Shown here: piece after piece, positions 20,071-53,881 of the stretch
Layout of the letters: every line of letters begins with the position of its first letter
Numbering within the stretch: the stretch's first letter is position 1
From: Alphaproteobacteria bacterium
GTDB taxonomy: Bacteria > Pseudomonadota > Alphaproteobacteria > Paracaedibacterales > VGCI01
NCBI GenBank assembly: GCA_016870095.1
Contig: VGCI01000006.1
Span: 7,349-71,348 of the forward strand
Reading direction: 5' to 3'
Length of the DNA stretch: 64,000 nucleotides
Position numbers and translations under genes: made by a program
Notes under the pieces: model-generated
What the model saw: only the letters and a program-made list of their open reading frames with translations
What the model was told of the DNA's origin: nothing
The model's database searches: none

Positions 20071-22524
<2,454 letters not shown>

Positions 22525-24964: not shown

Positions 24965-24972
24965 GACTTAAA

Positions 24973-37775: not shown

Positions 37776-38474
37776 ATGATCACACAAGCCATGGTATTAG
37801 CTGCAGGTGAAGGGCGTCGATTACGCCCCCTAACGGAACATATCCCAAAACCCCTGATTCCGGTTGGAGGAAAAGCAATGTTAGATCATGCGTTGGATCA
37901 ATTGTCCGCAATTGGTGTGACACGTTGTGTGGTCAATACTCATTATTTGGCGGATCAAATTCATACCCATCTTGGGGGAAGAGGATCACCGGAAATTACA
38001 ATCTCTCATGAACCTGAACTTTTAGATACAGGGGGGGGTATTGCAAAAGCATTGGCGCATTTTCAAGGAGAGCCCTTTTATGTTTTGAATGCAGACATTT
38101 GGTGGGTTGATGGTCATCAGTCGTGCTTAAAACAGCTTGCCAAAGTATGGGATTCAGAAAAAATGGATGCGTTGTTGCTTTTGGTTCCTCTTGACAATGC
38201 CATTGGGTTTGAGGGCGTGGGAGATTATTTCTTGAAGTCAGATGGGCGTGTCCAATATCGAGGAGAAAAGCTCGTAGCACCTTATATATTTTCTGGGATT
38301 CGTATCCTTCATCCTCACCTTCTAGAGAATGAAAAAATTCACCCTTTTTCGATTATGCCCTTTTTTCACAAAGCCGAAAGAGAGGGACGTCTTTATGGTG
38401 CAGTATTTGACGGGGATTGGGGAGATATGGGGACACTGGAAAGTTTAAAGGAAATTCAAGAGGTTGTTGGATGA
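37776..38474 (+). CDS. sugar-phosphate nucleotidyltransferase (MurU-like)
   Basis: MVLAAGEGRRLRPLTEHIPKPLIPVGG is a nucleotidyltransferase G-loop. It sits immediately upstream of addB with an ATGA overlap, the usual alphaproteobacterial position of murU. Confidence 0.72.
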   Translation: MITQAMVLAAGEGRRLRPLTEHIPKPLIPVGGKAMLDHALDQLSAIGVTRCVVNTHYLADQIHTHLGGRGSPEITISHEPELLDTGGGIAKALAHFQGEPFYVLNADIWWVDGHQSCLKQLAKVWDSEKMDALLLLVPLDNAIGFEGVGDYFLKSDGRVQYRGEKLVAPYIFSGIRILHPHLLENEKIHPFSIMPFFHKAEREGRLYGAVFDGDWGDMGTLESLKEIQEVVG

Positions 38475-41317
38475 TCTCTTCTCCCGAACGTCCGCTGAAA
38501 GGCCTCTGTGCAGTTCCTCTTGGCGTTCCTTTTTTACCAACTTTAGTTGAGAAACTGATAGGTGAAACAGCCTCTGACCCCTTAAGTTTAGGACGCTATT
38601 TAGTCATTCTTCCCACCCGCCGTGGGTGCTTAATGCTTCAAGAAGCTTTCCTGAAAGCAACGCGGAAGGGTTGTCGAATTCTCCCTCGAATTATGGCTCT
38701 GGCGGATATCGAGGAAGGAGCAGAGCTACCCGGATATAGCCCCCTTACTCTTTTGCCGTTGGCAATGCCTTCCTCGCAGAGATTGGGCTTGATGAGTCAA
38801 CTGGTGTTGGCCTTTGAACGGCAAAAAGAAGGAGGGCATCAAAACCCAGCGGGGGCCGTACGTTTGGCTCAGGAACTCATGCATTTAGTAGACGAAGTTG
38901 AAACGACCGGTTTAAATTTGAGCGATCTAAAAACGTTGGTGGGTGCGGATTATGCTGTTCATTGGCAATTAACACTGGATTTTTTAAAAATCCTGACAGA
39001 TTTATGGCCCCCCATTCTAGACCAGGCGGGTTACATAGAACCAGCAACGCGAAAACGTCTTATTTTAGAGCAAGTAGCGACTCATTGGAGTCCCCATTAT
39101 CCTGTTATTTTAGCTGGGACAACGGCCACACGCCCTGCAACGGCACAATTGGCGAAAGCTATTCTGAATTTTAACAATGGTTGCGTTGTTTTAGCAGGTG
39201 TTGATCGCTCTCTTGTGTCAATAAATGAGGAGGCGTTACCTCTGACACACCCTCAATATACTCTTCATCAATTCATGACTTATTTGCAATCTCCTGTTAT
39301 GTGGTTAGAGGGGGCTGCGCCAGTCTCTGCAAGATCAGTGGTCTTGTCTATGGCAATGTCCGCAAATCCGCAAGAAGAATGGCGCATTTCCCCAAAGATG
39401 GCTGAAGAGACATTATCTTCTCTACAAGGCATTGAGGCCCCTTCTGTTTTGGAAGAAGCTCGCCAAATTGCACTGATTATGCGCTATGAATTAGAACAAC
39501 CAGAACAAGTAATTGCTCTGGTAACACCGGATGGAGAGTTAGCACGTCGGGTTCGAGCAGCGTTAGGGCGGTGGGGATTGCACGCAAATCTATCCAGTGG
39601 GCTACCCTTTACTCAATCAGTCGTCGGGCGTTTTTTGGCCTTAACGAGTCTACTGGCGCAGGACTTTGGTGCGGCGGATCTGTTGGCGCTTCTTAAACAT
39701 CCTCTCTATGCGAAAGGGCGCGATCGAGTATCACATTTAATAGAAACTCGTCGTTTTGAGATGGCTTCGTTGCGAGGCACTCACCTATTAGAGATGGAAA
39801 AATTACCTTTTCCCGGGTATGAATTATGCATTCCGTTATTAGCTTTAAATGATGGTCAAACTCATTCTTTTGCCGATTTCTTAAAGGCACATAAAGCGAT
39901 TGCTGAAGCTTTAGTGGGGGCAGAAGATTCAAAGTCGTCTTTTCTTTGGGCGGAAGAAGATGGTCAAGTTGCTTCAGACTTCTTTGAAGATTTACTCGAA
40001 CATGCCCATTGCTACCCCTCACTTATGGGAAAGGATTATTCACTTTTTTTGCGCAATCTGATGGCCCAGGAAGTGGTTAGAGATCGTGAAGGGATTGGGT
40101 CGCGAATTTTGATTTTGGGGGCGTTGGAAGCGCGTTTATTACACGCTGACGTGGTAATTTTAGGGGGATTGAATGAAGGGTCCTGGCCTGGAGTTATTGA
40201 GGATGATCCCTGGCTTAGTCGTTCCATGAGAGAATCCTTCGGATTGCCTCCAACGGAACGTAAAGTAGGATTATCCGCCCATGATTTTTGTACAGGGATG
40301 ACGGCACAAAAAGTGTATATGACTCGTTCTCTTAAGAGAGCGGGCGCTCCCACGCTCCCCAGTCGTTGGTGGCAACGTCTTTCTGCATTATTGGCTACAG
40401 GTGGGGGAGAGCTGAAATCAACTCAACCTTGGTTAACTTGGTCGACGCTTCTTGATCAACCCCAAGAGCACATTAAGTTTGCTCCTCCGGCACCTTGCCC
40501 CCCGCTTTCTGCTCGACCACGTCGCTTGTCTGTGACAGAAGTGGGAACGCTTCTTCAGGATCCCTATAGTATTTACGCAAAGAAGATTTTGAATATTAGA
40601 CCCCTGGATCCTCTGGATGCAGATTTATCTTTGGCAGAACGGGGACAAGCCATTCATCAGGCTTTGGATGCTTTTGTGAGGTCGGGTGTAAATCCGGCTT
40701 CTTCAGAAGCTATTACAGTTCTTGAAACTATGGGAAGAGAAGCTTTTGGAAACCTACTTATGGATCCCAGAGCGATGGCATTTTGGTGGCCGCGGTTTCA
40801 ACGAGTAAGTGTATGGTTTTTAAGTCAGATGGTCAAAGATCAATCGCATATTTACCAGATTAAAACAGAAGTTGAAGGAGCCATAGAAATTCCAACGGCC
40901 AGAGGTCCGATTGTGCTGACCTCAAAAGCTGATCGAATTGATATTATGACAACGAAGCAAGCCTGTATCATTGATTATAAGACGGGCAGTGTGCCCTCTA
41001 GAAATTTTGTGCTACGAGGTTTGGCTCCTCAATTGTCTCTTGAGGGCGTGATTTTGAAGGTTGGAGGTTTTTCAGATTTGCCGGCTCTTGAGGTTGAAAA
41101 TTTATGTTATTGGCGTGTAACGGGGGGAACTCCTGTGGGGGAGATCATTTCGTTTGATGATGCATCGACATTAATATCTTCGGCTGAGCACGGGGTGCGG
41201 CGATTGTTTGAAATTTTCTTAAGTAAAGAAATACCATTTCATGCCTGCCCTGATCCTCTCCTCATTCCTGTCTATCACGATTATGCGCATCTAGAACGTA
41301 TTAAAGAGTGGGGATAA
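38471..41317 (+). CDS. addB: double-strand break repair protein AddB (alphaproteobacterial type)
   Basis: N-terminus VPLGVPFLPTLVEKL…YLVILPTRRGCLMLQEAF and a C-terminal PD-(D/E)xK-like region IDIMTTKQACIIDYKTG. The ATG at 38471 overlaps the upstream stop, so the track start at 38417 is rejected. Confidence 0.9.
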   Translation: MISSPERPLKGLCAVPLGVPFLPTLVEKLIGETASDPLSLGRYLVILPTRRGCLMLQEAFLKATRKGCRILPRIMALADIEEGAELPGYSPLTLLPLAMPSSQRLGLMSQLVLAFERQKEGGHQNPAGAVRLAQELMHLVDEVETTGLNLSDLKTLVGADYAVHWQLTLDFLKILTDLWPPILDQAGYIEPATRKRLILEQVATHWSPHYPVILAGTTATRPATAQLAKAILNFNNGCVVLAGVDRSLVSINEEALPLTHPQYTLHQFMTYLQSPVMWLEGAAPVSARSVVLSMAMSANPQEEWRISPKMAEETLSSLQGIEAPSVLEEARQIALIMRYELEQPEQVIALVTPDGELARRVRAALGRWGLHANLSSGLPFTQSVVGRFLALTSLLAQDFGAADLLALLKHPLYAKGRDRVSHLIETRRFEMASLRGTHLLEMEKLPFPGYELCIPLLALNDGQTHSFADFLKAHKAIAEALVGAEDSKSSFLWAEEDGQVASDFFEDLLEHAHCYPSLMGKDYSLFLRNLMAQEVVRDREGIGSRILILGALEARLLHADVVILGGLNEGSWPGVIEDDPWLSRSMRESFGLPPTERKVGLSAHDFCTGMTAQKVYMTRSLKRAGAPTLPSRWWQRLSALLATGGGELKSTQPWLTWSTLLDQPQEHIKFAPPAPCPPLSARPRRLSVTEVGTLLQDPYSIYAKKILNIRPLDPLDADLSLAERGQAIHQALDAFVRSGVNPASSEAITVLETMGREAFGNLLMDPRAMAFWWPRFQRVSVWFLSQMVKDQSHIYQIKTEVEGAIEIPTARGPIVLTSKADRIDIMTTKQACIIDYKTGSVPSRNFVLRGLAPQLSLEGVILKVGGFSDLPALEVENLCYWRVTGGTPVGEIISFDDASTLISSAEHGVRRLFEIFLSKEIPFHACPDPLLIPVYHDYAHLERIKEWG

Positions 41318-41378
41318 AAATAATTTTGCGTTTTCCCGCAGGGTCTTGCTGGTCTTATAAAGCGCCAAAAGAATGAAT

Positions 41379-41813
41379 TTACTGACTCAAATGTGAAATT
41401 CTAAATTCCAACAAATCAATGTTCTCAGAATATCCAGTTTTAAAATGGGCGCGATAAAAACATCGAGTTATATTTCCAACTCTTTCTGATTTTCTATACT
41501 CAATTTGTGCTATCCACGGTTTCTTTTTGCCCTGGATTCCAGACATAATAATTTCCTCTCGATACTCCGGGGTGATGAACCAAGGTATTCCGTTTATGGG
41601 AACAATAAGTCTGGTTTGTGTTTTATCAAATTTAGCATGACTTAAGTTATCTATAAAACCCTTTACAGTTTCAGGTGTTGAAAAAATTGGGGGAGTAATA
41701 GGATTCGCTTTCTCCAAATCCGTTTCAGATGCGAATAAAGGAGAAAGGACTAACAGTTGAGTTAGTAAAAATAATATAAATGTGAGTTTAGGGTTCAAAA
41801 AATTTGATAACAT
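41379..41813 (-). CDS. hypothetical secreted protein
   Basis: A 144-aa ORF with signal peptide LTFILFLLTQLLVLSPLFA. No recognised domain. Confidence 0.5.
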   Translation of the reverse strand: MLSNFLNPKLTFILFLLTQLLVLSPLFASETDLEKANPITPPIFSTPETVKGFIDNLSHAKFDKTQTRLIVPINGIPWFITPEYREEIIMSGIQGKKKPWIAQIEYRKSERVGNITRCFYRAHFKTGYSENIDLLEFRISHLSQ

Positions 41814-42121
41814 TTCCTATAAGACCATTTGAATTTATTATTGCTTATCATAAAGGAGTACCTTTGAAGACATATATTTCACAAACAACATTATTATTCA
41901 TAATGATGGATTTTTTAAATATCAATAATAATAATTTTTTTGAATTCGTTATGGCCAATTTAATAACAAAAAACGACAAATATTTAAGGTTTAAGCGGTC
42001 AAGTTTAAATTATTATAAATTTTAAAAAATTCTTTTTAACACTTTATTAGGCTTTGTTTTGTTAAATTTAAGGCAGTCCCATTGCAACTCACAAGTCGGT
42101 ATAGGAGTGAAAATATTCATC

Positions 42122-44164
42122 ATGGATTTGCCGTCAATTTCCAAGAAAATCATTCCTATGTTTGCTGCCTCCTTATCGATGATTATTGGCGCCCTAGTGA
42201 TATGGGGTTGGCACACGAATAATGTGACTTTAATCCAAGTTCAGCCCCAATTTGCTGGGATGCAATATAATAGCGCACTGTGCTTTATTGCAGCGGCTAT
42301 AGGTATTATAGGGATTTGTAAAAATTGGCGCTTACTTCCCTTTTTAATGGGAATTTTTATCATGGGTGTAAGCTACCTTACCCTCATTGAATATGTTTTC
42401 CAAATAAACTTGGGTATCGACGAACTTTTTATGCACGTTGCTCCTGGCGCTCAAAATTCTATGCCAGGGCGCATGTCCCCGAATGGTGCGCTGATACTCA
42501 GTCTTATGGGCACCTCCATTTTTATTTTAAGCAATTATGTAAGGTCTAGGTTAGAGATAAGGAGTCTGCTCTTTATTCTGATGGTTCTGACTTTAATCCC
42601 CTTAGCAATGAGTTTTGTCGGAATATTTGGCTACATAGTGGATATGCCAGCAACTTATGGTTGGGGCAGTTATACGCGTATGGCAATTCATAATACGATT
42701 ACAAATATTCTTCTTTGTATAGCTCTGATATCGATTATTTGCATCAAAGCTTCTGAAGCAAATTTTTCTTTTTTATCCTGGGTTCCTTTGCTCGTTTTTG
42801 TTGTCATTGAAGTTATAACACTATCGTTTTGGGAAGCATCTTTGGCATATATCGAAAAAAATAAACATCAACGGAACACCTTAGCAGCTCAGAGCGTAAA
42901 AAATGTTATAAGAGAAGAATTGGAATATAGGACGGAATCCTTGTCGCGGATGGCTAAGAGATGGGAATCTCGAAAGGGAGGCACTCCTTATCAGGAATGG
43001 TCTCAAGATGCTTTGAATTCTATTGCTGACCAACCGGGTTATGAAGCCATTGAGTGGGTAGACGCCGAGTATTTTGTTAAATGGATTGCGCCTTTACGCG
43101 GCAATGAGGCGGCTTTAGGCCTTAATCTTTTGGATGGTAAAAAACGATCACGTCATTTGGAAACTCTGCGTCAAGATGGGAAAACTATCATAACCCCTAT
43201 GCTAACATTGACCTCTGGTGAAAATGGATTTTTGATTTATACCCCCGTAGGGCGCGGAGAAAATTTCCAAGGAATTATTGTTGGTGTTGTGAATGCCAAA
43301 GCATTTTTTGAAGAAGTGTTTCGAGAAGCGATTACCGACTATAATATTGCTATTTACTACCACAATGGAATCGTTTATCAACGCCATCCGGATCTTGGTT
43401 ACCCGACTGATAATAATAGTATTACATATGAAGTCACGGATTATGAATGGTCAATTACCTCTTGGCCTGTTCCCGCCCTCGTAGCTAAACAACAATCCTG
43501 GCTTCCTTATGTGATTTTGATTATTGGATTTATTGTCGCAACAATGCTGGCCTTAATTGCCCATTTAGCACAAATAGCCCATCGAAATGCTCTGCAAGCA
43601 GCTGCTGAAATTAAGACGCGACGAAAAACCGAACAACAACTTATTCTGTATTCGAAAAAATTAAAAAAATTATCTCTCTTGGATTCTTTAACGGGAATTA
43701 ATAATCGTCGCTCCCTTACAGCTATTCTCCAAACAGAAATGACTCAAATAAAAAAGGGACAGAAATACCTCTCTATTATATTGCTCGATATAGATTTTTT
43801 CAAAAAAATTAATGACACTTATGGCCATGTCACGGGAGACACAGTTCTCCAAAAAGTTGGAAGTATACTGAAGAAAAACACACGTTCTGTGGATACGGTC
43901 GCTCGATATGGAGGGGAAGAATTCTGTATTGTTTTGAATAATGCTACCGACCGCGAAGCTTATGAAGTTGCCGAAAAATTACGACACTTGCTTGCCCAAC
44001 AAATATTTCATAGCGAAAAGCAGCATACGTTTCAGATAACCTGTAGTTTTGGGGTCTATCAAGTCCCCTCTAACACAAAGAAAATTACCCAAGTTTTTGA
44101 AATTGTGGACGGAGCCCTCTATACAGCTAAAAATTCAGGACGCAATTGTGTTGTATTGGTGTAA
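42122..44164 (+). CDS. membrane sensor diguanylate cyclase (multi-TM + periplasmic sensor + GGDEF)
   Basis: The GGDEF domain has an intact A-site RYGGEEF (GGEEF at 43910-43924) and an I-site RSVD five residues upstream. About 7 N-terminal TM helices precede an extracytoplasmic CHASE-like region, then another TM and a coiled-coil linker. The start is ATG 42122 or TTG 42059. Confidence 0.85.
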   Translation: MDLPSISKKIIPMFAASLSMIIGALVIWGWHTNNVTLIQVQPQFAGMQYNSALCFIAAAIGIIGICKNWRLLPFLMGIFIMGVSYLTLIEYVFQINLGIDELFMHVAPGAQNSMPGRMSPNGALILSLMGTSIFILSNYVRSRLEIRSLLFILMVLTLIPLAMSFVGIFGYIVDMPATYGWGSYTRMAIHNTITNILLCIALISIICIKASEANFSFLSWVPLLVFVVIEVITLSFWEASLAYIEKNKHQRNTLAAQSVKNVIREELEYRTESLSRMAKRWESRKGGTPYQEWSQDALNSIADQPGYEAIEWVDAEYFVKWIAPLRGNEAALGLNLLDGKKRSRHLETLRQDGKTIITPMLTLTSGENGFLIYTPVGRGENFQGIIVGVVNAKAFFEEVFREAITDYNIAIYYHNGIVYQRHPDLGYPTDNNSITYEVTDYEWSITSWPVPALVAKQQSWLPYVILIIGFIVATMLALIAHLAQIAHRNALQAAAEIKTRRKTEQQLILYSKKLKKLSLLDSLTGINNRRSLTAILQTEMTQIKKGQKYLSIILLDIDFFKKINDTYGHVTGDTVLQKVGSILKKNTRSVDTVARYGGEEFCIVLNNATDREAYEVAEKLRHLLAQQIFHSEKQHTFQITCSFGVYQVPSNTKKITQVFEIVDGALYTAKNSGRNCVVLV

Positions 44165-44430
44165 GGAAACTCTTCCCACAAATCTTTCTTGGCAGGCTCA
44201 TTTTACTATTCTTTTCTCATTCGATCCGTTACTTTTATTTTCTAAAAAATATCTATCAAAATTCATAAAATAATAAGATTCCCTTCATTTTTAAGATAAA
44301 AAAGAATGTCCGTAATTTGTACTTATGTATGTACTTACGATTATTTTGCGGATAGGAGAAAGCGAGATTTTTAAAATAGATTAAGCGAGTTCAAGGTTCA
44401 CTAACTTAAAATTATGAGAGAGGGTTAAGC

Positions 44431-45534
44431 ATGATTTCTCAAAAAAAACTTTTTATTAATACATTAAGTACTCGCTTTAGATGGTTAACAATTAAAAGCT
44501 GCTTTCTGGGAAGCCTGACTGTTTTTGCCAGTTGGCAAGCCTCTCCTTGCAGAGGTTTCGATGAATTTAATCAAAGTGAAGATGCTTTTCGATACCAAAG
44601 TCATTATCATTTTCATCCTGAAAATGGCACACCCCAATTTTGGTCGCATAGGGAAAGGGTTAGAAATATTGGGCTAACAAGAGAGCCTGTGGAACGGTAT
44701 CGCCCGAGAAGTATTTTATCCTTACCACAATCTTCTGAAGAAATTTTTACTAAGCATTTCGCAGAGACAAATTCGACAGTTTCTAACTCAAAAGCCATAA
44801 TACTGGGGACAAATGATTGGAGACAATCCGTTGAACATCAAGGTGATCTCGGAACTTGTGCAAGTTTTGCAACGGTAGAAGGTTTGAAATTTGTTCATAA
44901 AAACACTTCTCTTTCTCACCCTTATCTTATTGTAAAAGCAGAAAAACGCGATGATTGTATAAATAACGGTATTTCACTTGGTCATACGATGGATACAGCT
45001 CTTGATATTGGTGTCGTTGATGGAAATTTGTGGCCCTACAAACCTTACGCTGCTTCAGTAAAAGCCACAAATAGTGAGATTAGAGATCCAGATCATTGGA
45101 ATATTTGTTTAAATCCCCCTTTTACGAAACTTGTCGAAAAAAACTTTGTTAAATATGCTTTTGAGGATGTAAAAAGCCTCTTTTTATCGGAACAAAGACG
45201 TTGCAAAATTGGTGAACGTTGCGAATTTTCCAAAAGCTTGACCATCTGTCAAGCGCTTACAGAAAACAAATGTCCTGTTATTATTTCAGTTCCAGTTGAT
45301 GTGGGGGGTTGGCCAATATCAGGTGTGATTGAAACGCTCAATAGAGCAAACGGTTTTCATGCGATTACGATCTACGGATATGACCCCAAAACCGAATTTT
45401 TTTATTTTAAGAATACGTGGGGGCAAAATTGGGGCGAGCAGGGTCATGGTCGTATGAGTTTTTCTTATGTCGATAAGCATGCTAGTGAGGCATGGGTTGG
45501 CATAGGGGGAAGATTATTAGCATTTACGCAGTAA
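44431..45534 (+). CDS. papain-like (C1 family) cysteine peptidase, secreted
   Basis: NDWRQSVEHQGDLGTCASFATVEG matches papain DWRQ…QGSCGSCWAF (Cys codon at 44857). NGFHAITIYGYD carries the His and FKNTWGQNWGEQGHGRM the Asn/Trp box. An N-terminal hydrophobic signal is present. Confidence 0.85.
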   Translation: MISQKKLFINTLSTRFRWLTIKSCFLGSLTVFASWQASPCRGFDEFNQSEDAFRYQSHYHFHPENGTPQFWSHRERVRNIGLTREPVERYRPRSILSLPQSSEEIFTKHFAETNSTVSNSKAIILGTNDWRQSVEHQGDLGTCASFATVEGLKFVHKNTSLSHPYLIVKAEKRDDCINNGISLGHTMDTALDIGVVDGNLWPYKPYAASVKATNSEIRDPDHWNICLNPPFTKLVEKNFVKYAFEDVKSLFLSEQRRCKIGERCEFSKSLTICQALTENKCPVIISVPVDVGGWPISGVIETLNRANGFHAITIYGYDPKTEFFYFKNTWGQNWGEQGHGRMSFSYVDKHASEAWVGIGGRLLAFTQ

Positions 45535-45592
45535 AGGCTTAGATAAACGTTAATTCTTAAAGAGTTTCAAATATATTATGGGAGAACAGTGA

Positions 45593-46465
45593 ATGAAAGT
45601 ATTTTTAAGTAGAGTTTTTGGTATTCCGTTTTTTACCGCTTTTGTCTTTTTTAGCTTGCCAACACAGGCTATTCAGTTCGGATTTGTATATGATTATCGT
45701 CTGGATGAGCCTTCTAAAAGAATTTTGGGAGATGCCGCTGGTAAATTAAGCCGTGCCATTATTACGGAATATCCAAAACACCCAAGAGACCAAAAATTTG
45801 ATGTTGTAATAACCGTCAAGCTACAAAGCATTGATGGTGAGGGTGGAACCTTAGCCCAAGCTGGTCCCACCAAATTTGTGACATATAATCATGATGGAGG
45901 ACAATACGTTACCGCTGGAACACTAGAAATTGACTTAGCAGATTTAAGAAGTCCTGGCCTTCTCAATATTGTTACGCATGAAATCTGTCATATTCTTGGT
46001 TTTGGGACTTTGTGGGAAGAATATAAACTCGTTAACACTAATGCTGCTGGTGAACAGTATTTTATAGGGACTCACGCAGCTCAAGCTTATACAAACTTAA
46101 GGGGTCGTCAAGGTTTAAGGGATAATCGGCTATGGAGTGTGCCGTTGGAAAGTGGAGGGGGTCCCGGCACCATCGGCGCTCACTGGTCTGAAACGGAATT
46201 TTATAATGAGCTTATGACAGGCTATTATAACGAGAATATCACTAATCCCTTGAGTTCCGTTACATTGGCTTCCTTCGTTGACTTGGGTCATAAGGTTAAC
46301 TATACCAGTGCTGATCATTATCAATTACCAAGGACTATTAATTCGGGTGCGTTCATAGGTGCTCAATTGGGGCAATATAATTATAACAGAAGGCCCTATC
46401 ATAACTGTACGCATCATTTACATTATACGCCCTATAATTGTGGTGCCACATGCGCAGTTCAATAA
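45593..46465 (+). CDS. leishmanolysin-like (M8-type) zinc metallopeptidase, secreted
   Basis: Signal peptide, HEICHILGFG (HExxHxxGF, 45977-), and downstream GAHWSETEFYNELMTG resembling the third-His/Met-turn region of GP63-like enzymes. Confidence 0.72.
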   Translation: MKVFLSRVFGIPFFTAFVFFSLPTQAIQFGFVYDYRLDEPSKRILGDAAGKLSRAIITEYPKHPRDQKFDVVITVKLQSIDGEGGTLAQAGPTKFVTYNHDGGQYVTAGTLEIDLADLRSPGLLNIVTHEICHILGFGTLWEEYKLVNTNAAGEQYFIGTHAAQAYTNLRGRQGLRDNRLWSVPLESGGGPGTIGAHWSETEFYNELMTGYYNENITNPLSSVTLASFVDLGHKVNYTSADHYQLPRTINSGAFIGAQLGQYNYNRRPYHNCTHHLHYTPYNCGATCAVQ

Positions 46466-46531
46466 AAAATTGTTCGTATCATTTTGAAAAAAGTGCGGCA
46501 AAATCATAAATAAACAGTATTTAGCAAATTT

Positions 46532-46575
46532 AGAGCTGCCCTATCCGAAATGGACTTGGCGGCTCTTTGTTGTTT
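46532..46575 (+). terminator. possible terminator after the metallopeptidase gene
   Basis: 9-bp stem AGAGCTGCC / GGCGGCTCT (one G-U pair) with a 17-nt loop, followed by T-rich ttgttgttt. Confidence 0.35.
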
Positions 46576-46693
46576 CGGCCCTCTACAGGACAAATAAATT
46601 GGAAATATTTATTTTGATATGAGGTAATTTGGAGTAGTCTATAACAGAATCTTATCCGGCTAAATTAAGTAAATTATAAGGAGTTACGCCCCC

Positions 46694-49600
46694 TTGAGTA
46701 CAGCTCAATTCTTGGCAGCAGATCCAAAAGTGAGTGCGTGGGTGGTCGCATCTGCGGGTACGGGCAAGACAAAGGTTTTGACAGATCGCATATTAAATTT
46801 ACTTCTTCAAGGATTTGCTCCTGAGCGTATTTTATGCTTAACATTCACAAAAGCTGCAGCCTCAGAAATGGCTAATCGTTTAATGAAACGATTAGCGCAC
46901 TGGGCGACATTACCGGAGCTTGAGCTGAAGCGAGACCTTCAGGAAATCTCAAGTGAGACAATCATATCTCTTCAACTTATTTCGCGAGCGCGACAATTAT
47001 TTACCCTTGTATTAGATGCGCCAGGTGGCATGAAAATTCAAACCATTCATGGTTTCTGTCAATCAGTTTTGTCTCGTTTTCCTATTGAAGCAGGAATTCC
47101 TCCCCATTTCCGCGTTTTGGATGATTTGTTAGCGGAAGAATTGTGGCTGGAAGCCCAGCGTCGCGTATTTGCGAAGCCCTCATCTTTAGCTGATGCAGCG
47201 CTTTCCACGTTAAATCCCTATATGGCGGATCAGAGATTCAGTTCAATCTTAAACGATTTTTACTATGATCGATCGCGCATTGAAGTGCTTCTCAAAAGAT
47301 ATGATAATTTGTGGGATTATGCGACTGAACTATTGGCCTTTTTAGAAGTTGATAAGCGACTTGAAAATCCCGAAGAGCTTTTACAGCCTGATTTAATATC
47401 GAGACTAAAAACTCAATTTGAGCCCTTCGAGACTGATTTCGAGGCTTATATAAAAACATATTTGACACAAAAAAATGAAATACGCAAAAAACTGAAACCG
47501 GAACAAATGCCTCAGGCGGAACGTGTATATCAATTTGTGCGCTCCTTATCCGCTTTGGAAGTTGTCCAACGCACAATTGCGACTTTAGCGCTTTTTCAAG
47601 AGATTATTCAAGATTACCAACATCAGAAATCCCGTCGCAGCGTATTAGATTATGATGATCTAATTCAAAAGACCCAGAACTTATTAAATCAGCCGGGTAT
47701 TGCGGCATGGGTATTATATAAATTAGATGGAGGTATTGATCACTTATTAGTTGATGAAGCCCAAGATACAAATGCAGATCAATGGGATATTATTCTCAGT
47801 TTAACTTCAGAATTCTTTACACAAAATAAATCTCGTCGAACAATTTTTGCGGTGGGGGATCCCAAGCAATCGATTTACAGTTTTCAAGGGGCAAACCCGG
47901 AAGATTTTCTAAAAATAAAAGATCATTTTTCTCAGTTGTCACAAAAAGGGGGCCAGAATTGGCGAGACGTTCGATTGGATTTATCTTACCGGTCAACGGC
48001 AACTATTTTGAATATTGTTGATGAAGTTTTTGCCAATGATCAAAACAAAAAAGGTATCTGCTTTGATAGTTCAGATATAATTCATCATGCTCATCGAGAA
48101 CCATCGATCGCGCATCTTCCGAGTTTAGTGGAATTATGGCCTCTGATTGAGCCGGAAGAAGATGATGGAGAATTGGGTGAGTTGGAATGGCACTTGCCTT
48201 TAGAACGTGTAGATCGTGCGAGCCCACAATCTCGTCTGGCGCACTATTTAGCGGAGCAAGTTGAGAGCTGGATTCATGCTAAAGGTCTCTTGCCCTCAAC
48301 GCATCAGCCCATACAACCTCGGGATATTCTTATTCTGGTTCGTAAGCGCAGTATCTTGGGGCAAGAAATCATACGTGCTCTTAAGAAGCGGAATATTCCT
48401 GTTGCAGGTGCAGATCGACTAATATTGTCAGATCATATTGCCGTCATGGATCTCTTGGCTTTGGGTCAATTTTCCGTTCTTCCAGAAGATGACCTCAGTT
48501 TGGCCAGTATTTTGCGCAGCCCCTTAATCGGAATGAGTGAGGATGACTTGTTCAGTCTTGCCCACGGACGTCCGGGGACACTTTGGGCGTCATTGTCAAA
48601 AAATGCTCAAGAGAAACTTTCATTTCAAGAAGCATATATTTGGTTAAAAGCATGCTTAAGGGAAGTAGATCTGTGTCCAGTATATGAATTTTATAGTTGG
48701 GTATTAACGCAGCAAGAAGGGCGCTGTCGATTTTTAAGTCGTTTAGGGCATGAAGTAGAGGATGCTTTAGAAGAATTTTTGAGCCTTTGCCTAAATTATG
48801 ATCAGGAGCATGCAGGATCTCTCCAAGGATTTATTCACTTTATGACTCATCAGACCCAAGAGATTAAGCGGGATACATCTGACACGATTCATAACCAGGT
48901 TCGGTTGATGACGGTACACGGGTCTAAAGGACTTCAGGCACCCATTGTCATTTTACCCGAAGCTGCCGAATCTGGAAAAGAGCGCGCGGATTCTCTTTTA
49001 TGGACAGATAAACTTGTGATGTTACGACCAACTCAAGTTCAAGATACCGCCGATACTAAGTATTTTAAAGATAAGGAATGGCAAGCGACCACTGAAGAGC
49101 GACGTCGATTATTGTATGTAGCGTTGACGCGGGCTCAAGATCGTCTTTATGTTGGGGGATGGAAATCAGCGAGAGAGTTAGCCAAGGACTGTTGGTACCA
49201 AGTTATAAAAGATGCATTATACATAAAGTCTGAAAGCAATGTATATTCCCATGATCAACAGATTCTCCCCCCAGACATAAACACATTTAACTCCTCTGAA
49301 GCTTTTGTTGAAGATGTATTGACCTTACCAGAATGGGCTCTTACCTCTCCCCTTGAGATGCCTAAAACTCTGAACGATTCTCAATGGGAAAAGAGTTATT
49401 CCTTAAAAGCAATTGAGCGTGGCATCCTTATTCATAGGTTATTTGAATATTTGCCTGAATTGGAAACGCATCTTCGGTATGGGAAAGCTTGTCAGATAAT
49501 CGAGAAGGAAGGCCTCCTTATCTCTGATTGGCAAAGCGATATTGAGACAACTTTAAAAATTTTAAATGATCCCAATCTTGCGGACATATTTGGGCCTCAT

Positions 49601-49864
49601 TCTTTGGCTGAGGTACCTGTAAGTGGTGTTGTCGATGGCATACCTTTTCAAGGACGTATTGATCGCCTCCATGTAACGGAGGAGACACTTACAATTATTG
49701 ATTATAAATCCGATCAAAATCCTGCGGGTTCTGCAGAGGATATTCCAGACACCTATAAAAGGCAACTTGAGGGATATGCAGCCGCACTGAAATCAATATA
49801 CCCTAAACATCGAATTCGCAAAATTATCCTTTGGACAACGGGTCCAAAGGTTCAAATCTTGTGA
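46694..49864 (+). CDS. addA: double-strand break repair helicase AddA (UvrD-type helicase + nuclease)
   Basis: AADPKVSAWVVASAGTGKTKVLTDRILNLLL (Walker A), LCLTFTKAAASEM, LLVDEAQDTN and a C-terminal nuclease motif IIDYKSD. The TTG start is preceded by AGGAG. Confidence 0.92.
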   Translation: MSTAQFLAADPKVSAWVVASAGTGKTKVLTDRILNLLLQGFAPERILCLTFTKAAASEMANRLMKRLAHWATLPELELKRDLQEISSETIISLQLISRARQLFTLVLDAPGGMKIQTIHGFCQSVLSRFPIEAGIPPHFRVLDDLLAEELWLEAQRRVFAKPSSLADAALSTLNPYMADQRFSSILNDFYYDRSRIEVLLKRYDNLWDYATELLAFLEVDKRLENPEELLQPDLISRLKTQFEPFETDFEAYIKTYLTQKNEIRKKLKPEQMPQAERVYQFVRSLSALEVVQRTIATLALFQEIIQDYQHQKSRRSVLDYDDLIQKTQNLLNQPGIAAWVLYKLDGGIDHLLVDEAQDTNADQWDIILSLTSEFFTQNKSRRTIFAVGDPKQSIYSFQGANPEDFLKIKDHFSQLSQKGGQNWRDVRLDLSYRSTATILNIVDEVFANDQNKKGICFDSSDIIHHAHREPSIAHLPSLVELWPLIEPEEDDGELGELEWHLPLERVDRASPQSRLAHYLAEQVESWIHAKGLLPSTHQPIQPRDILILVRKRSILGQEIIRALKKRNIPVAGADRLILSDHIAVMDLLALGQFSVLPEDDLSLASILRSPLIGMSEDDLFSLAHGRPGTLWASLSKNAQEKLSFQEAYIWLKACLREVDLCPVYEFYSWVLTQQEGRCRFLSRLGHEVEDALEEFLSLCLNYDQEHAGSLQGFIHFMTHQTQEIKRDTSDTIHNQVRLMTVHGSKGLQAPIVILPEAAESGKERADSLLWTDKLVMLRPTQVQDTADTKYFKDKEWQATTEERRRLLYVALTRAQDRLYVGGWKSARELAKDCWYQVIKDALYIKSESNVYSHDQQILPPDINTFNSSEAFVEDVLTLPEWALTSPLEMPKTLNDSQWEKSYSLKAIERGILIHRLFEYLPELETHLRYGKACQIIEKEGLLISDWQSDIETTLKILNDPNLADIFGPHSLAEVPVSGVVDGIPFQGRIDRLHVTEETLTIIDYKSDQNPAGSAEDIPDTYKRQLEGYAAALKSIYPKHRIRKIILWTTGPKVQIL

Positions 49865-49880: not shown

Positions 49881-51578
49881 TTAAGTCTTAGACTCTGAGA
49901 GTTCATTTTCAGATAGAGCATCCTCACGCTCTTCCTTCCTGGCTTCAAAAACACTTTTTCTTTTTAGGGCAACTTTTTTAGGTGTATTTTTTTCAGTCTT
50001 TAAGCCATTTTCGAAAAAGTTAGGAGTATAGCCCGTTAGTTGTAGGGCTGCTTCAAAATCTTTTTTGTCTGATGCGGAATCTGCTACGTTCTCTTCCTCT
50101 TCCTCAAATTCTCCTCTGGCTATATGTTTTTGAAATTGACCGGTAGCAACACTTAAAACAATTGTATTGATGTCTGCAGTGGCATCAACCGTTGTGCGGG
50201 TTGCTTCCGTTATGAACACATCATTTGCAGAATCTAAATTATCAATAAGGGAACGTTTAGCAACTATAAATTCGTTTAGGTAGGCATTGCGAATATTTCG
50301 TTTTTCTTTAATTAACTTTGTAAGATGCGCAGATTTTGAAAGAGCGTTTTTATGTTCTGCGTAAGAAGTGCGGACAGTTCGTTCTATTTGTCGAAGAGAA
50401 AGACCTAAACGTGCGTGTGATTCTGAAAGACGTTTGATGGTTTCTCGAGATTTTGCTAAATCGGCTCCGCCATTAAACAAGTTATGACGAGCAACAACCA
50501 TAGCTGTCAGTCGACCTTGAGATCCAGTTGTGGCGCTCATGTTCCGATCTTTTTCTCCTTCTAATTCCAAGGTAATTGTGGGAACAAGTTTCGAGCTGCT
50601 TTCTTTATTGGTGGATTCTGCAATTTGAACGTTACTTTTAGCAACCTTAATTGCGTTGTTGTTGTCGATAGCCATACGAACGGCCATTTCAATGGAATCA
50701 GGAATTAAATAAGCGGGGAGTTTAATGCGCTTAATTTGATCAGGTGCTTCCTTACCAACCACCTCAATAAATTTTGCTTTTGCAACTTCTAGATCAGATT
50801 GAATATTTGATTTCGTAACAAAAGTATCTTGTAAACGAGAGTCAACTTGATATAAATCCGAAATTGGAGCTGCGCCAGCTTGAACAATTTCTGCTACTTT
50901 TTCCTTCATGGATTGATGAAACCGAATGTTATTATCAGCAATTCGTAAGAGACGTTGCAGTCTGCGAATATCGATAGCTGCTGTGGCAGCATCTAGTATG
51001 GCTGTATCGGTGGTTATTCCAAGTGTTCCTCGGGCTTGTTGTTCTTGCGAGCGTGCACGAGCTACACGTGATGAAGTTGCATTCCCATCAAATAGAATCT
51101 GCCGAATGATAACAGAAGGGTCACTGCGGGTTGTGCTAATTGTTCCTGAGCTGGCAAGGGGGTTCAGGGAGTTAATACCAAAACTGCGGCGAAAATTGTC
51201 TCGTCCGACACTGGCACGTAAATCAACTGTGGGCATATATCCGGCTTTAGCTTGTGTAATAACTTCCTCGGCTGCACTTAAAGCTTGTTTGTCAGCATTG
51301 ATGCTGGGTTGATGAGTTAATGCTTCTTTAATAATGCCTGAAAGACTACTTGCTGAAGACTTAATAGGTTGTTTGTATTGAGTTAGTGTATCGTGTGAAA
51401 AAGGGGAAATTTCACTCGCAATCTTATTTTCAGATTCTGCATTCGCAGCCTCATTACTCATTTTTGCCTTAATTGGGGAAGGGGGTGGTGGTAAGGAAGC
51501 CTTGCTCATCGGAGTATACCCAAGTATGAAAGACAAAGCAAAATAAGGCCCAATTTTTGTTAGACTTATTCTATTCAT
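49881..51578 (-). CDS. tolC: TolC family type I secretion outer-membrane protein
   Basis: IKEALTHQPSINADKQALSAAEEVITQAKAGYMPTVDLRASVG is a TolC repeat start, and the helical/beta repeat is duplicated. The start is set at MNRISL (51578). Both N- and C-termini carry unusually long charged extensions. Confidence 0.85.
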   Translation of the reverse strand: MNRISLTKIGPYFALSFILGYTPMSKASLPPPPSPIKAKMSNEAANAESENKIASEISPFSHDTLTQYKQPIKSSASSLSGIIKEALTHQPSINADKQALSAAEEVITQAKAGYMPTVDLRASVGRDNFRRSFGINSLNPLASSGTISTTRSDPSVIIRQILFDGNATSSRVARARSQEQQARGTLGITTDTAILDAATAAIDIRRLQRLLRIADNNIRFHQSMKEKVAEIVQAGAAPISDLYQVDSRLQDTFVTKSNIQSDLEVAKAKFIEVVGKEAPDQIKRIKLPAYLIPDSIEMAVRMAIDNNNAIKVAKSNVQIAESTNKESSSKLVPTITLELEGEKDRNMSATTGSQGRLTAMVVARHNLFNGGADLAKSRETIKRLSESHARLGLSLRQIERTVRTSYAEHKNALSKSAHLTKLIKEKRNIRNAYLNEFIVAKRSLIDNLDSANDVFITEATRTTVDATADINTIVLSVATGQFQKHIARGEFEEEEENVADSASDKKDFEAALQLTGYTPNFFENGLKTEKNTPKKVALKRKSVFEARKEEREDALSENELSESKT

Positions 51579-51718
51579 ATCACTGCCTCTATATCCTCTT
51601 TTATATAATGATATCATTATATTAAAAATTTTATATATTTTTTTATCTAAAATTAAGATAGTTGAAACTTTTTGTGTGGTTTGATTGAGGGGTAAGGTAT
51701 GATTAAGGGTGCATTTTT

Positions 51719-53881
51719 ATGGCTAATGAACGCGAAACTGGGCCGAGAGAAAGTCTTAAGTATGGAGATGCTTTACTCCATTGCTTAGAGATTATATCGG
51801 GTTTGTTAAATTATCGCGTTTCCACGGAGTCTTTTAAAGCAGGTTTGCCTATTGGGCCAAAGGGATTTTCTCCGGCAATGTTATTGCAAGCCGCCGAACG
51901 GTTTAATTTTAAGTCAAAAATAGTCGCCCGTACACTCAATGAACTTTCTTCCCATTTATTACCTTGTATTCTCATGATGAGAGGAGGAAAAGCTTGTGTT
52001 TTGGTGGCCATAGATGAGTTTGTCGCTACAGTCTTTTTCCCGGAGGAAAAAAAAACACCCCAAACCCTACCAATTGAAGAATTAAGAGAACAATATACAG
52101 GTAAAATGATTCTTGTGGCTCATAAGCCATTGGAAAAAGAGGAATCAAGAGATACACCTCTCTCGTGGTTTTGGGATACCTTAAAAGTTTTTAGCTCAAT
52201 TTATACTCAAGTTGTTTTGTCTTCAGCATTAATAAACCTTTTCTTATTGGCGGGCACATTATATGCAATGAATATTTATGATAGAGTATTGCCAAATAAA
52301 GCTTTTGATACATTACTAGTTTTGTCTATTGGTATATTTGTAATTTATTTCTTTGATTTTGCGTTGCGCATGATACGGGGATACTTTGTGGATATTGCTG
52401 GAAAAAATATGGATGTATTGTTGGGGAGCTTTTTATATCAGCGTATTTTAGGTTTACAATTTATCCACCGCCCTGCATCTGCTGGTGGACTTGCGCATTA
52501 TTTAAAAGAATTTGAGGGGGTTCGAGAATTTTTTTCATCTACAACTATTGTCACTCTCGTTGATATTCCTTTTGCCATATTATTTTTGATTGCAATCGCT
52601 ATGATTTCAATATCTATGGTCATGGTTCCTATTACAGCCATCGTTCTTATTTTGATTATTAGCTTTGCAATGCAACCGGCAATGAAGGGGTCCGTTAAGA
52701 ATCTTCTATCTCAGATGGAATATAAGCATGGAATTTTGATGGAATCTTTGTCTGGGCTTGAAACGGTTAAATCTATGAATGCAGAAGGGAGAATGTTGCA
52801 TAAGTGGGAAGAATCGGTTTCAGGAGCAGCTTTAGCTGCCAACAGAGTGTATTATATGTCGCTGCTTTCCTCTAATGCGATCTTTTTTATACAAAATGCG
52901 GCATACGTTTTTCTGATAGTTATCGGTGTTTATGAAGTTGCAGCAGGCACATTATCTGTTGGAGGTTTGATTGCGGCCACAATCCTAACCACGCGGGCAA
53001 TTGCATCAATGGGAAGTGTCGTTGGGTTAACAGCACGCTTTAACCAAGCTTATGCTTCCTTAAAACTTCTTGATCTAATCGTAAATTTGCCGGCTGAGCG
53101 ACCTCCCTCTATGCGATACATTCACCGCAACATTTTTGAGGGAGAAATTGATTTTATAGATGTAGAATTTGCCTATCCTGGTCAGAAATTAAAAGCGTTA
53201 AGAAATCTTTCTTTTAAAATTAAAGCTAGAGAAAAAGTAGCATTAATTGGTCGAATGGGTTCTGGCAAAACGACAATAGAAAAGTTACTCCTGGGGCTAT
53301 ATTACCCCAATTCGGGAACTATTTTAATTGATGGCATTGATATGCGCCAATTAGATCCCGTAGAAATTCGCTCTTCAATTGGGTACGTATCTCAAGAGAT
53401 TTTCTTATTTAGAGGCACTGTTCGGGATAATATTGCTATTGGAAATGTGACAGCCGATGATCAGCAAATTTTGAGAGCTTCCAAACTTGCTGGTGTTGAT
53501 GATTTTGTGCGTCAACATCCGATGGGGTATGATATGCCAATTGGTGAAGGTGGTTCTGGCTTATCAGGGGGACAGCGTCAATCTATTGCCATTGCAAGAG
53601 CCCTTCTTCATGACCCCTCAATCTTAGTTTTGGATGAGCCTTCGGCCTCTATGGATCCTGAATCTGAATTTTTGTTGATTAAACGCTTAGAAGAGCATAT
53701 TCCTGAAAAAACTCTCATTGTTGTGACTCATCGTAATTCAGTTTTATCTTTGGTAGATCGTATCATTGTCATTGATCAAGGACGTATAGCAGCTGATGGT
53801 CCGCGGGATAAAATTTTAGAATTACTTGTTAAAGGATCTGTAACTCAAGAATCTCCTATAGAAGAAGAGGAGGCTGATTAA
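51719..53881 (+). CDS. type I secretion system permease/ATPase with degenerate N-terminal C39-like domain (LssB/LapB-like)
   Basis: N-terminus GDALLHCLEIISGLLNYRVSTESFKAGLPIGPKGFSP…LPCILMM matches the LssB family pattern. It has a 6-TM ABC exporter domain, Walker A GRMGSGKTT, signature LSGGQRQ and Walker B ILVLDEP. Confidence 0.9.
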   Translation: MANERETGPRESLKYGDALLHCLEIISGLLNYRVSTESFKAGLPIGPKGFSPAMLLQAAERFNFKSKIVARTLNELSSHLLPCILMMRGGKACVLVAIDEFVATVFFPEEKKTPQTLPIEELREQYTGKMILVAHKPLEKEESRDTPLSWFWDTLKVFSSIYTQVVLSSALINLFLLAGTLYAMNIYDRVLPNKAFDTLLVLSIGIFVIYFFDFALRMIRGYFVDIAGKNMDVLLGSFLYQRILGLQFIHRPASAGGLAHYLKEFEGVREFFSSTTIVTLVDIPFAILFLIAIAMISISMVMVPITAIVLILIISFAMQPAMKGSVKNLLSQMEYKHGILMESLSGLETVKSMNAEGRMLHKWEESVSGAALAANRVYYMSLLSSNAIFFIQNAAYVFLIVIGVYEVAAGTLSVGGLIAATILTTRAIASMGSVVGLTARFNQAYASLKLLDLIVNLPAERPPSMRYIHRNIFEGEIDFIDVEFAYPGQKLKALRNLSFKIKAREKVALIGRMGSGKTTIEKLLLGLYYPNSGTILIDGIDMRQLDPVEIRSSIGYVSQEIFLFRGTVRDNIAIGNVTADDQQILRASKLAGVDDFVRQHPMGYDMPIGEGGSGLSGGQRQSIAIARALLHDPSILVLDEPSASMDPESEFLLIKRLEEHIPEKTLIVVTHRNSVLSLVDRIIVIDQGRIAADGPRDKILELLVKGSVTQESPIEEEEAD

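Follow-up and report, generated by a model that had tools for sequence, protein, structure and literature searches.

Candidate exported proteases of the papain-like C1 and leishmanolysin-like M8 families in an accessory islet between addB and addA of a Paracaedibacteraceae-like alphaproteobacterium

The Pfam families Peptidase_C1 and Peptidase_M8 were originally described in eukaryotes. Leishmanolysin (GP63) of Leishmania major (PDB 1lml, MEROPS M8) is synthesized as a precursor of approximately 600 amino acids, and its solved chain comprises 478 residues. In bacteria, proteins named 'leishmanolysin-related zinc metalloendopeptidase' by NCBI occur in Ca. Odyssella thessalonicensis and Ca. Paracaedibacter symbiosus, both featuring a short single-domain architecture of 274–280 amino acids. 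Regarding family C1, the closest described systems are xylellain of Xylella fastidiosa (3ois) and further short prokaryotic C1A peptidases including Lpg2622 of Legionella pneumophila (6a0n), in which a short N-terminal extension replaces the I29 prodomain. In xylellain, the extension reportedly occupies the active-site cleft. Lpg2622 is reportedly a type II secretion substrate. Short C1A peptidases are present in all major bacterial phyla, and their transfer was inferred to have proceeded mainly from bacteria to eukaryotes (PMC10380794). Literature searches on bacterial M8 enzymes or on Holosporales proteases retrieved nothing specific, and proteases are essentially undiscussed in the Holosporales-group literature examined.

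The window analyzed here, a 64-kb stretch of DNA, is chromosomal DNA of an alphaproteobacterium that is Holosporales/Paracaedibacteraceae-like and occurs in freshwater metagenomes. Its deduced AtpA and AtpD proteins are 76% and 83% identical to those of P. symbiosus, and AddAB is of the alphaproteobacterial type. Genes encoding a C1 peptidase of 367 amino acids (44431..45534, + strand; Pfam PF00112, 38.6 bits) and an M8 peptidase of 290 amino acids (45593..46465, + strand; PF01457, 43.9 bits) were identified within this window. The nearest relatives of both proteases sit in the amoeba symbionts Odyssella, Paracaedibacter and Caedibacter, and by analogy with these relatives the organism may itself be host-associated. 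As the best explanation, with a probability of roughly 70%, it is proposed that the two genes belong to an accessory islet of a Paracaedibacteraceae-like bacterium and encode a prokaryote-type C1 peptidase and a 'mini' M8 peptidase, which would both be extracytoplasmic. The finding is real yet fairly ordinary, both proteases joining known families.

The islet comprises approximately 5.4 kb (41318..46693) and harbors a 144-amino-acid ORF with a signal-like N-terminus, a CHASE-GGDEF gene and the C1 and M8 genes between addB and addA. Its left flank is formed by addB of the alphaproteobacterial type (38417..41317, + strand; NCBIfam TIGR02786 addB_alphas, 770 bits), for which gene callers place the start 54 nt later on identical contigs, resulting in 948 amino acids. 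The right flank is formed by addA, likewise of the alphaproteobacterial type (46694..49864, + strand; TIGR02784 addA_alphas, 1040 bits). The 144-amino-acid ORF (41379..41813, − strand), featuring a signal-like N-terminus with a site between LFA and SET after residue 28, matched a family in neither Pfam nor NCBIfam; a 59% identical copy is present in locus L001 and absent from locus L162. Furthermore, the islet encodes a membrane-bound CHASE-GGDEF diguanylate cyclase (42059..44164, + strand; Pfam GGDEF 160 bits, CHASE 51.5 bits), for which a later start yielding 680 amino acids is preferred by gene callers. L162, representing the closest relative devoid of the C1 and M8 proteases, encodes a 67% identical CHASE-GGDEF protein directly abutting addA, and this gene is the older component of the islet.

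Among 47 related metagenome loci, addB and addA are neighbors with gaps of 11–785 nt in 46, the sole exception being L162, which carries other cargo and no proteases at this site. The islet gene order, together with the exact C1 protein, recurs on 16 contigs originating from several samples, and the gene order is also repeated in L001. Insertion of the islet into the otherwise conserved addB-addA adjacency, as assumed in the original prediction, is thus strongly supported, and its content varies among close relatives. The locus provides a clean case of an accessory-gene site within a normally invariant DNA-repair gene pair. Mobile-element boundaries were considered and rejected, since inspection of ORFs and Pfam matches revealed no integrase or transposase in the islet, repeats at its flanks are short and at chance level only, and no tRNA genes were found within the 64-kb window. 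Searches against Rfam returned no islet match at E<=1 and none at the gathering score across the whole window. In view of the upstream GGDEF gene, the 266 nt leading into the C1 gene had been considered as a place for an RNA element such as a c-di-GMP riboswitch, which was rejected on this basis.

The two protease genes are adjacent on the same strand and separated by a spacer of 58 nt (45535–45592), confirming the coordinates, strand and spacing originally given for them. RBS-like sequences (GAGAGGG and GGGAGAA) precede the two start codons, and a promoter-like site was not found in the 266-nt C1 leader. Both genes are probably co-transcribed, because the spacer is short, each gene possesses its own Shine-Dalgarno-like sequence and no terminator-like site is predicted between them. 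The signal-like N-termini previously noted for both ORFs were supported by a simple heuristic. In the M8 protein, K2, R7 and a hydrophobic core precede a site between TQA and IQF after residue 26; the C1 protein has a basic n-region, a hydrophobic core at residues 23–35 and a site between VFA and SWQ after residue 33, the n-region being unusually long and the core only moderately hydrophobic according to the same heuristic. Signal-like N-termini were also seen in further subfamily members. A lipobox near Cys40 of the C1 protein was considered and rejected, since in 'ASPC' position −1 is occupied by Pro and homologues do not conserve the Cys. Based on these features, C1 and M8 are probably Sec-exported proteases of the Holosporales-like bacterium.

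The Peptidase_C1 match (E 1.6e-9; gathering score 20.7) covers residues 129–343, and the translation carries DWRQ...QGDLGTCASFA, NGFHAITIYGYD and FKNTWGQNWGEQGHG. The active-site motif QGDLGTC (44839..44859, + strand) includes the oxyanion-hole residue Gln137 and the nucleophile Cys143, and the stretch from the catalytic His310 (NGFHAIT) to Asn328 (FKNTWG) is located at 45358..45414 (+ strand). In HMMER alignments to papain-family chains of the PDB, QGDLGTC falls on QGxCGSC, H310 on the catalytic His and KNTWG on KNSWG. Accordingly, C143, H310, Q137, N328 and W330 are in register with papain Cys25, His159, Gln19, Asn175 and Trp177, and within LGTCASF, Leu140 and Ala144 occupy the positions of Cys22 and Trp26. 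In an alignment of 14 sequences of the C1 subfamily, Q137, L140, C143, H310 and W330 are invariant and N328 is nearly so; Cys176 and Cys226 are also invariant. The protein is composed of the signal-like region (residues 1–33), a predicted disordered region (33–93) and the catalytic domain (approximately 100–367), the latter mostly exceeding a pLDDT of 90 in an AlphaFold model with an overall pLDDT of 76.9. A helix is predicted at residues 103–109. Foldseek identified bacterial xylellain (3ois) as the top match (E 1.7e-13), with xylellain, Der p 1, papain and cathepsins all reaching a probability of 1.0, indicating the two-lobed papain fold. The protein is a short prokaryote-type, xylellain-like cysteine endopeptidase that belongs to the papain family and has a complete Gln-Cys-His-Asn set, for which activity is predicted.

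The C1 protein shares the papain fold and the Gln/Cys/His/Asn residues with xylellain and the short prokaryotic C1A peptidases including Lpg2622, and like them it is bacterial and possesses a short N-terminal extension in place of the I29 prodomain. However, TM values of 0.71–0.73 to xylellain (normalized to the target) are accompanied by an identity of only 17–18%, and the C1 protein is a member of a small subfamily of its own, which is characterized by the invariant residues Leu140, Cys176 and Cys226; it also carries the predicted disordered region ahead of its catalytic domain. At E<=1e-30, 16 of 1.84 billion representatives fell into this subfamily, the only named members so far being those of Caedibacter sp. 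38-128 and Ca. C. acanthamoebae, with metagenome sequences making up the remainder. Cluster look-ups of C1 relatives likewise led almost exclusively to metagenome proteins. A profile search of the subfamily against a word-indexed database yielded six proteins and no named outgroups. Relatives from metagenomes reached 64–90 bits, named bacterial genomes across many phyla contributed matches 24–30% identical over the catalytic domain, and one Phytophthora sequence was present at 71 bits. The original prediction had regarded the enzyme as eukaryote-type, which does not agree with these results: the I29 inhibitor prodomain (PF08246, ERFNIN-type) gave no match at E<=0.1 and was found in none of the 144 nearest representatives, the CGSCWAF motif with the disulfide cysteine Cys22 is absent from the protein, and the best fold match is the bacterial xylellain.

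The Peptidase_M8 match (E 1.8e-11; gathering score 21) is confined to profile positions 197–337 of 529. Both protein family assignments exceed the Pfam gathering scores, their catalytic residues align with solved structures and all motifs quoted beforehand are present in the translations, HEICHILGFG and GAHWSETEFYNELMTG being those of the M8 protein. The zinc-binding motif HEICH (His129, Glu130, His133) is encoded at 45977..45991 (+ strand), and the third zinc ligand His197 (GAHW) together with Met208 of the Met-turn (NELMTG) at 46181..46216 (+ strand). Comparison with leishmanolysin 1lml by HMMER aligned HEICH with HEMAH, GAHW with GSHI and NELM with DELM, and G136 and F137 complete the HExxHxxGF motif. 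Zinc ligands, catalytic Glu and Met208 are invariant in an alignment of 38 sequences. A signal peptide (residues 1–26), a catalytic core (approximately 27–245) and a Cys/His-rich tail (approximately 266–290) were distinguished, and in the model (pLDDT 79.9) the fold begins at residue 29, straight after the signal peptide. Leishmanolysin 1lml was the only strong PDB match in Foldseek (E 1e-11, TMq 0.58, TMt 0.38). The protein is a 'mini' metzincin of the leishmanolysin family with HExxHxxGF motif, distal His and Met-turn, and is predicted to be active.

Compared to GP63, the HExxHxxGF zinc site, the Met-turn, an insertion of approximately 63 residues ahead of the third His and the fold of the N-terminal and central domains are held in common. 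The M8 protein differs by its small size, by the absence of the C-terminal domain, the 1lml match covering only part of the target, and by the absence of the N-terminal cysteine-switch propeptide, its first Cys being C132 within HEICH. It carries a Sec signal, and its Cys/His-rich tail at the C-terminus, of the form PYHNC...C, is specific to the clade. Identity to GP63 amounts to 19% across the structure and to 27% for the core.

The nearest M8 relatives are those of Odyssella (49% identity) and Paracaedibacter symbiosus (47%), which share the short architecture, the signal peptide and the PYHNC...C tail. They scored 245–251 bits, followed by mostly bacterial sequences at 105–127 bits, and form one clade with the window protein (82 of 100 bootstraps) that is nested among bacterial sequences. 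Core identities of 38–46% to proteins of Gemmatimonadota, Planctomycetota, cyanobacteria and Gallionella were determined. This placement, together with the low core identity to GP63, does not support the earlier designation of the M8 enzyme as eukaryote-type. In P. symbiosus, the gene is located after the ATP synthase operon and not at addB-addA, whereas in Odyssella it adjoins a gene for an S1 trypsin-like protease; the 339-residue protein encoded upstream of the Odyssella gene was examined as a C1-like candidate and rejected, lacking any C1 similarity. Both genes are patchily distributed without synteny between lineages, and their pairing was found only in the lineage of the window.

Based on these results, the normally tight addB-addA junction would have turned into an accessory-gene site in this lineage, gaining the CHASE-GGDEF sensor first, with the two-gene protease cassette also being held in the sub-lineage of the window. 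The proteases would be made with Sec-type signal peptides and therefore would act outside the cytoplasm. Most likely, they would break down extracellular proteins or those of a (protist) host, whether to gain amino acids or to act as effectors on that host; the secreted effector or nutrient-acquisition function suggested before is plausible in light of their relatives in amoeba symbionts. Such proteins are the presumptive substrates, and signal-peptide cleavage and export past the periplasm may likewise be assumed. No outer-membrane route was evident within the window, type II secretion genes being absent. The adjacent type I secretion system is unlikely to export the proteases, since its exporter is of the C39 type, which normally serves double-glycine leader peptides and not Sec substrates, and Sec-like signals are found at the N-termini of the proteases. 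The effectors of Holosporales-type symbionts of protists are poorly known, and the result adds two candidate exported proteases to them. Its practical value is modest: the proteins are candidates for biochemical work on a bacterial mini-M8 enzyme and on a short C1A subfamily that is divergent.

A farther-reaching interpretation considers the addB-addA junction as a lineage-specific hotspot, at which host-directed effector cargo is swapped by homologous recombination among Paracaedibacteraceae-like symbionts, and regards the C1 subfamily and the mini-M8 clade as undescribed symbiont-specific families of effector proteases jointly acting on protist host proteins, the conserved PYHNC...C tail of the latter possibly being a C-terminal latency switch that blocks the zinc. 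Among the cargo seen so far are, in one strain, an LRR-like protein and, in another, the protease cassette. This interpretation is speculative and rather unlikely.

Alternatively, C1 and M8 could be housekeeping proteases of the periplasm or envelope, serving quality control or maturation, for instance with one activating the other, and being neither released nor host-directed. Sec-type signals are the only ones visible, the lack of type II secretion genes in the window fits such a location, and the S1 protease neighboring M8 in Odyssella could indicate a proteolytic maturation pair. However, the genes are accessory, missing from the closest relative L162, patchy elsewhere and without conserved synteny, they evolve faster than housekeeping genes, and the characterized relative Lpg2622 is said to be secreted by the type II system. 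Retention in the envelope for housekeeping is accordingly considered improbable.

The proposed extracytoplasmic protease cassette was furthermore weighed against decay, i.e., a remnant of unneeded genes drifting to pseudogenes without current function. dN/dS values of 0.29–0.34 for C1 and 0.24–0.25 for M8 were obtained, exceeding those of the flanking genes (0.05–0.09) by a factor of 3–6 and nevertheless remaining clearly below 1; purifying, though relaxed, selection acts on both genes. Holosporales-type bacteria typically show genome reduction, and three other lineages have disrupted C1 homologues, namely by an in-frame stop at codon 262 in L001, by a deletion that shifts the frame in Ca. C. 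acanthamoebae and by a split into parts of 166 and 182 amino acids in L087, the latter on eight contigs. The C1 family is therefore dispensable and may be in the process of being lost. In contrast, both window ORFs are of full length with every catalytic residue kept, the identical C1 protein occurs on the 16 contigs mentioned above, and an intact copy of 97% identity exists in L007, so that a cassette without present function has little likelihood.

Acquisition from a eukaryotic host, which had also been suggested, is very improbable and a recent event of this kind is largely refuted: sequence-only searches of the PDB do rank plant and animal papain-like enzymes (C1) and Leishmania GP63 (M8) first, two Hondaea proteins besides the Phytophthora sequence appear at middle ranks of the homologues and relatives of the organism live intracellularly in protists, but the PDB holds mostly eukaryotic members and its matches are weak (33.5 and 27.7 bits) compared to the bacterial and metagenomic relatives, the eukaryotic hallmarks of both families are missing, the proteases essentially fall into ordinary bacterial clades and the prevailing direction inferred for short C1A peptidases is the opposite one. 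Both proteases fall within bacterial branches of the C1 and M8 families and are not recent gains from a eukaryotic host. Since the two families have widespread short forms in prokaryotes, papain-like or leishmanolysin-like signatures in a bacterium are by themselves insufficient to claim transfer from a eukaryote, and this corrects a common inference. GC3 gave no strong foreign signal either, with values of 0.28 for C1 and 0.32 for M8 as compared to 0.31–0.37 for housekeeping genes.

The two open reading frames of the original prediction, 44431-45534 (+, 367 aa) and 45593-46465 (+, 290 aa), were recovered with a spacer of 58 nt between them, and every catalytic motif quoted for them was found in their translations. 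Pfam profile searches placed the first product in Peptidase_C1 (38.6 bits, gathering score 20.7) and the second in Peptidase_M8 (43.9 bits, gathering score 21); they are referred to as C1 and M8. Gln137, Cys143, His310 and Asn328 of C1 are in register with solved papain-family chains, as are His129-Glu130-His133, His197 and Met208 of M8 with leishmanolysin (GP63, 1lml). The signal-like N-termini were backed by a simple heuristic, with a long basic n-region, a hydrophobic core (residues 23-35) and VFA/SWQ in C1, and K2, R7, a hydrophobic core and TQA/IQF in M8; homologues likewise start signal-like. The best-supported reading is that C1 and M8 represent endopeptidases that would be exported by the Sec pathway and would cleave proteins outside the cytoplasm, where they may degrade host or environmental proteins or act as host-directed effectors. 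Export past the periplasm, substrates and zymogen control are inferred.

HMMER, run exhaustively against 1.84 billion representatives, revealed 16 C1 relatives at E<=1e-30, followed by a score gap beyond which the general C1 family was reached (1,902 hits at E<=0.001). Members of this subfamily are mostly metagenome sequences, the only named genomes being Caedibacter sp. 38-128 and Ca. Caedibacter acanthamoebae (41% identity each). Among 185,579 species genomes, other full-length matches did not exceed 30% identity, higher values being confined to short C-terminal segments; these low-identity matches were scattered over Bacteriovoracia, Omnitrophota, Planctomycetota, Verrucomicrobiota, Paenibacillus and others. 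All subfamily members share Q137, C143 and H310, and nearly all share N328; C176 and C226 represent two further invariant cysteines. Unlike in papain, an invariant Leu140 takes the place of the disulfide-forming Cys22 and Ala144 that of Trp26. The I29 prodomain is absent from C1, as determined by Pfam search, and from 144 of the 144 nearest representatives. In the AlphaFold model, a papain fold is predicted with confidence from about residue 100 onwards, and residues 33-93 are disordered; among solved structures, bacterial xylellain (3ois, E 1.7e-13) matches the model best, and the matches also include Legionella Lpg2622. According to Kordis and Turk (PMC10380794), every major bacterial phylum has short xylellain-type C1A peptidases, which are rare among Alphaproteobacteria; extracellular ones bear signal peptides, and eukaryotic C1A enzymes probably descend from a bacterial ancestor. 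Based on the missing I29 prodomain, the xylellain match and this survey, C1 is therefore a prokaryote-type short C1A peptidase and not a eukaryote-type cathepsin, a label that the residues at the Cys22 and Trp26 positions also speak against.

For M8, a word-indexed search yielded 193 homologues, the top named ones originating from Ca. Odyssella thessalonicensis (49%) and Ca. Paracaedibacter symbiosus (47%), both named 'leishmanolysin-related zinc metalloendopeptidase' by NCBI. Lower-ranked homologues belong to Gemmatimonadota (often Big_2 fusions), Planctomycetota, cyanobacteria and Gallionella, and two come from the labyrinthulomycete Hondaea. When catalytic cores were compared by neighbour joining, M8 and seven short relatives formed one clade (82/100 bootstraps) amid bacterial sequences; the core of M8 is 56-57% identical to those of the symbiont proteins, 38-46% identical to those of other bacteria and 27% identical to that of GP63. 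The M8 model (pLDDT 79.9) had 1lml as its only strong match (E 1e-11), covering part of that structure (TMt 0.38), and the Pfam match was limited to profile positions 197-337 of 529. Compared with GP63, M8 is a mini-leishmanolysin that lacks the C-terminal domain. It also has no N-terminal cysteine-switch propeptide, its first cysteine being that within HEICH. A Cys/His-rich C-terminal tail, PYHNCxxH...C with invariant C272, is common to the symbiont mini-M8 clade (residues 266-290, window 46388-46462; low-confidence in the model). Because an N-terminal propeptide is missing, this tail might, speculatively, bind metal or act as a latency element. The truncated architecture, the distance of the core from GP63 and the position of the clade also speak against the description of M8 as eukaryote-type. 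With both enzymes belonging to bacterial short-form lineages, acquisition from a eukaryotic host is not supported. C1 and M8 add further members to already known families; all named members of these two uncharacterised groups, the C1 subfamily and the mini-M8 clade, are amoeba symbionts.

The claim that the genes reside in an inserted islet is well supported. The islet of about 5.4 kb separates addB (38417-41317) from addA (46694-49864), both of alphaproteobacterial type by NCBIfam equivalog match, and comprises a 144-aa ORF (41379-41813, -) whose N-terminus is clearly signal-like and which matches no family, a CHASE-GGDEF gene, C1 and M8. In the related contig L001, the 144-aa ORF is retained at 59% identity. 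The junction was surveyed in 80 metagenome loci encoding AddA relatives, each with 10 kb of upstream flank. Both genes were present in 47 loci and directly adjacent in 46 of them (gaps 11-785 nt). The sole exception, locus L162, is the closest relative (AddA 84% identity over the 124 residues present) and features a 4.7-kb gap in which the same CHASE-GGDEF gene, at 67% identity, directly adjoins addA. In place of the 144-aa ORF, C1 and M8, L162 harbours two unrelated minus-strand ORFs (5340-7380): the product of one (257 aa) belongs to no known family, and that of the other (328 aa) bears a weak LRR_6 signature. The junction is therefore a variable accessory site and acts as a point where accessory, possibly effector-like, cargo is swapped. 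The GGDEF gene has resided there longer; the protease pair is confined to the sub-lineage of the window. No integrase, significant repeats or tRNA were found at the islet borders, and the AT shift is only slight (GC3 0.28-0.32 for C1 and M8 vs 0.31-0.37 for housekeeping genes).

Pairing of C1 with M8 is restricted to close relatives of the window, namely the 16 contigs with the identical C1 protein, L007 (97%) and L001 (84-90%). Outside this group, homologues occupy unrelated genomic places: that of C1 adjoins era-rnc-lepB in the Caedibacter sp. lineage, lies beside nuo genes on a 130-kb contig, and in L087 is located within a mobile region (integrase, MobA/TraI relaxase, TraD), while the M8 homologue of P. 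symbiosus follows the ATP synthase operon. In another symbiont, Ca. Odyssella thessalonicensis, M8 likewise has an endopeptidase from a different catalytic class as its partner: the next gene on the same strand encodes an S1 trypsin-like protease of 320 aa (L005 10001-12090; PF00089, 30.7 bits). Large GerE-NB-ARC-TPR (STAND-type) proteins adjoin C1 subfamily genes on two unrelated contigs (L002 11476-15057; L087 581-7482); this may be fortuitous or reflect a neighbourhood that recurs in symbiont-like genomes.

Comparison of the window with L001 or L007 (Nei-Gojobori) resulted in dN/dS values of 0.29-0.34 for C1 and 0.24-0.25 for M8, versus 0.05-0.09 for AddB, AddA and GGDEF. Selection on both proteases is purifying but relaxed, as is common in secreted proteins. 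The C1 homologue is broken in L001 (3608-4711) by an in-frame TAA at codon 262 within a cluster of changes, and in the complete Ca. Caedibacter acanthamoebae genome (L009 ~9735-10830) by a frameshifting deletion after 'TIGSAM'; in L087 (9448-10549) it is split into 166 + 182 aa, a split shown by eight contigs. The C1 family can be dispensed with and has been lost repeatedly. At synonymous sites, the C1-M8 cassette is 2-6 times less diverged than its flanks, with dS of 0.22-0.25 vs 0.48-0.54 for L001 (window 44750-45950) and 0.044-0.119 vs 0.278 for L007; towards L007, a tract at ~43,900-45,750 reaches 97-99% identity, compared with 91-95% in flanking DNA. Low dS and the high-identity tract suggest that strains have recently exchanged the cassette by homologous recombination.

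Co-transcription of C1 and M8 is plausible because of the 58-nt spacer, Shine-Dalgarno-like sequences before both starts and the lack of a terminator-like site between them. No known riboswitch linking them to the upstream GGDEF gene was found. Directly after addA, a complete type I secretion system is encoded (49881-55206): the TolC-like outer-membrane component is on the minus strand, and the HlyD-family adaptor and the ABC exporter, whose N-terminus carries a C39 peptidase domain, are on the plus strand. This domain points to a bacteriocin or a peptide with a double-glycine leader as cargo; no obvious substrate gene was identified. As the exporter is of the C39-ABC type, this system is unlikely to carry the Sec-signal proteins C1 and M8.

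Several JGI and SRA samples contain contigs, 16 in total, that encode the exact C1 protein, with constant gene order (addB, 144-aa ORF, CHASE-GGDEF, C1, M8, addA, type I secretion genes); L094 (67 kb, JGI 3300020109) matches the window at 100% identity along 12.5 kb. The JGI identifiers are close to one contained in the name of a 'DeepCast' lake MAG, and according to a Holosporales review such bacteria have come from Lake Tanganyika metagenomes; a freshwater-lake origin may be inferred. Uptake transporters of the window, a Na+-dependent nucleoside transporter, an MFS/sugar-type transporter and a Vut_1 vitamin-uptake transporter (2422-3693, 14845-16134, 17145-17870), are compatible with, and not diagnostic of, a nutritionally dependent lifestyle. 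Based on the presence of dnaA-dnaN-recF-gyrB, the ATP synthase operon and mreBCD, the window is chromosomal and near the probable replication origin; dnaA-dnaN-recF-gyrB are at 20071-26403 (-) and 26404-26790. AtpA and AtpD share 76% and 83% identity, respectively, with Ca. Paracaedibacter symbiosus. The distance from dnaA to the protease islet is ~15-20 kb, and over the window cumulative GC skew climbs near-monotonically, dnaA marking no clear switch.
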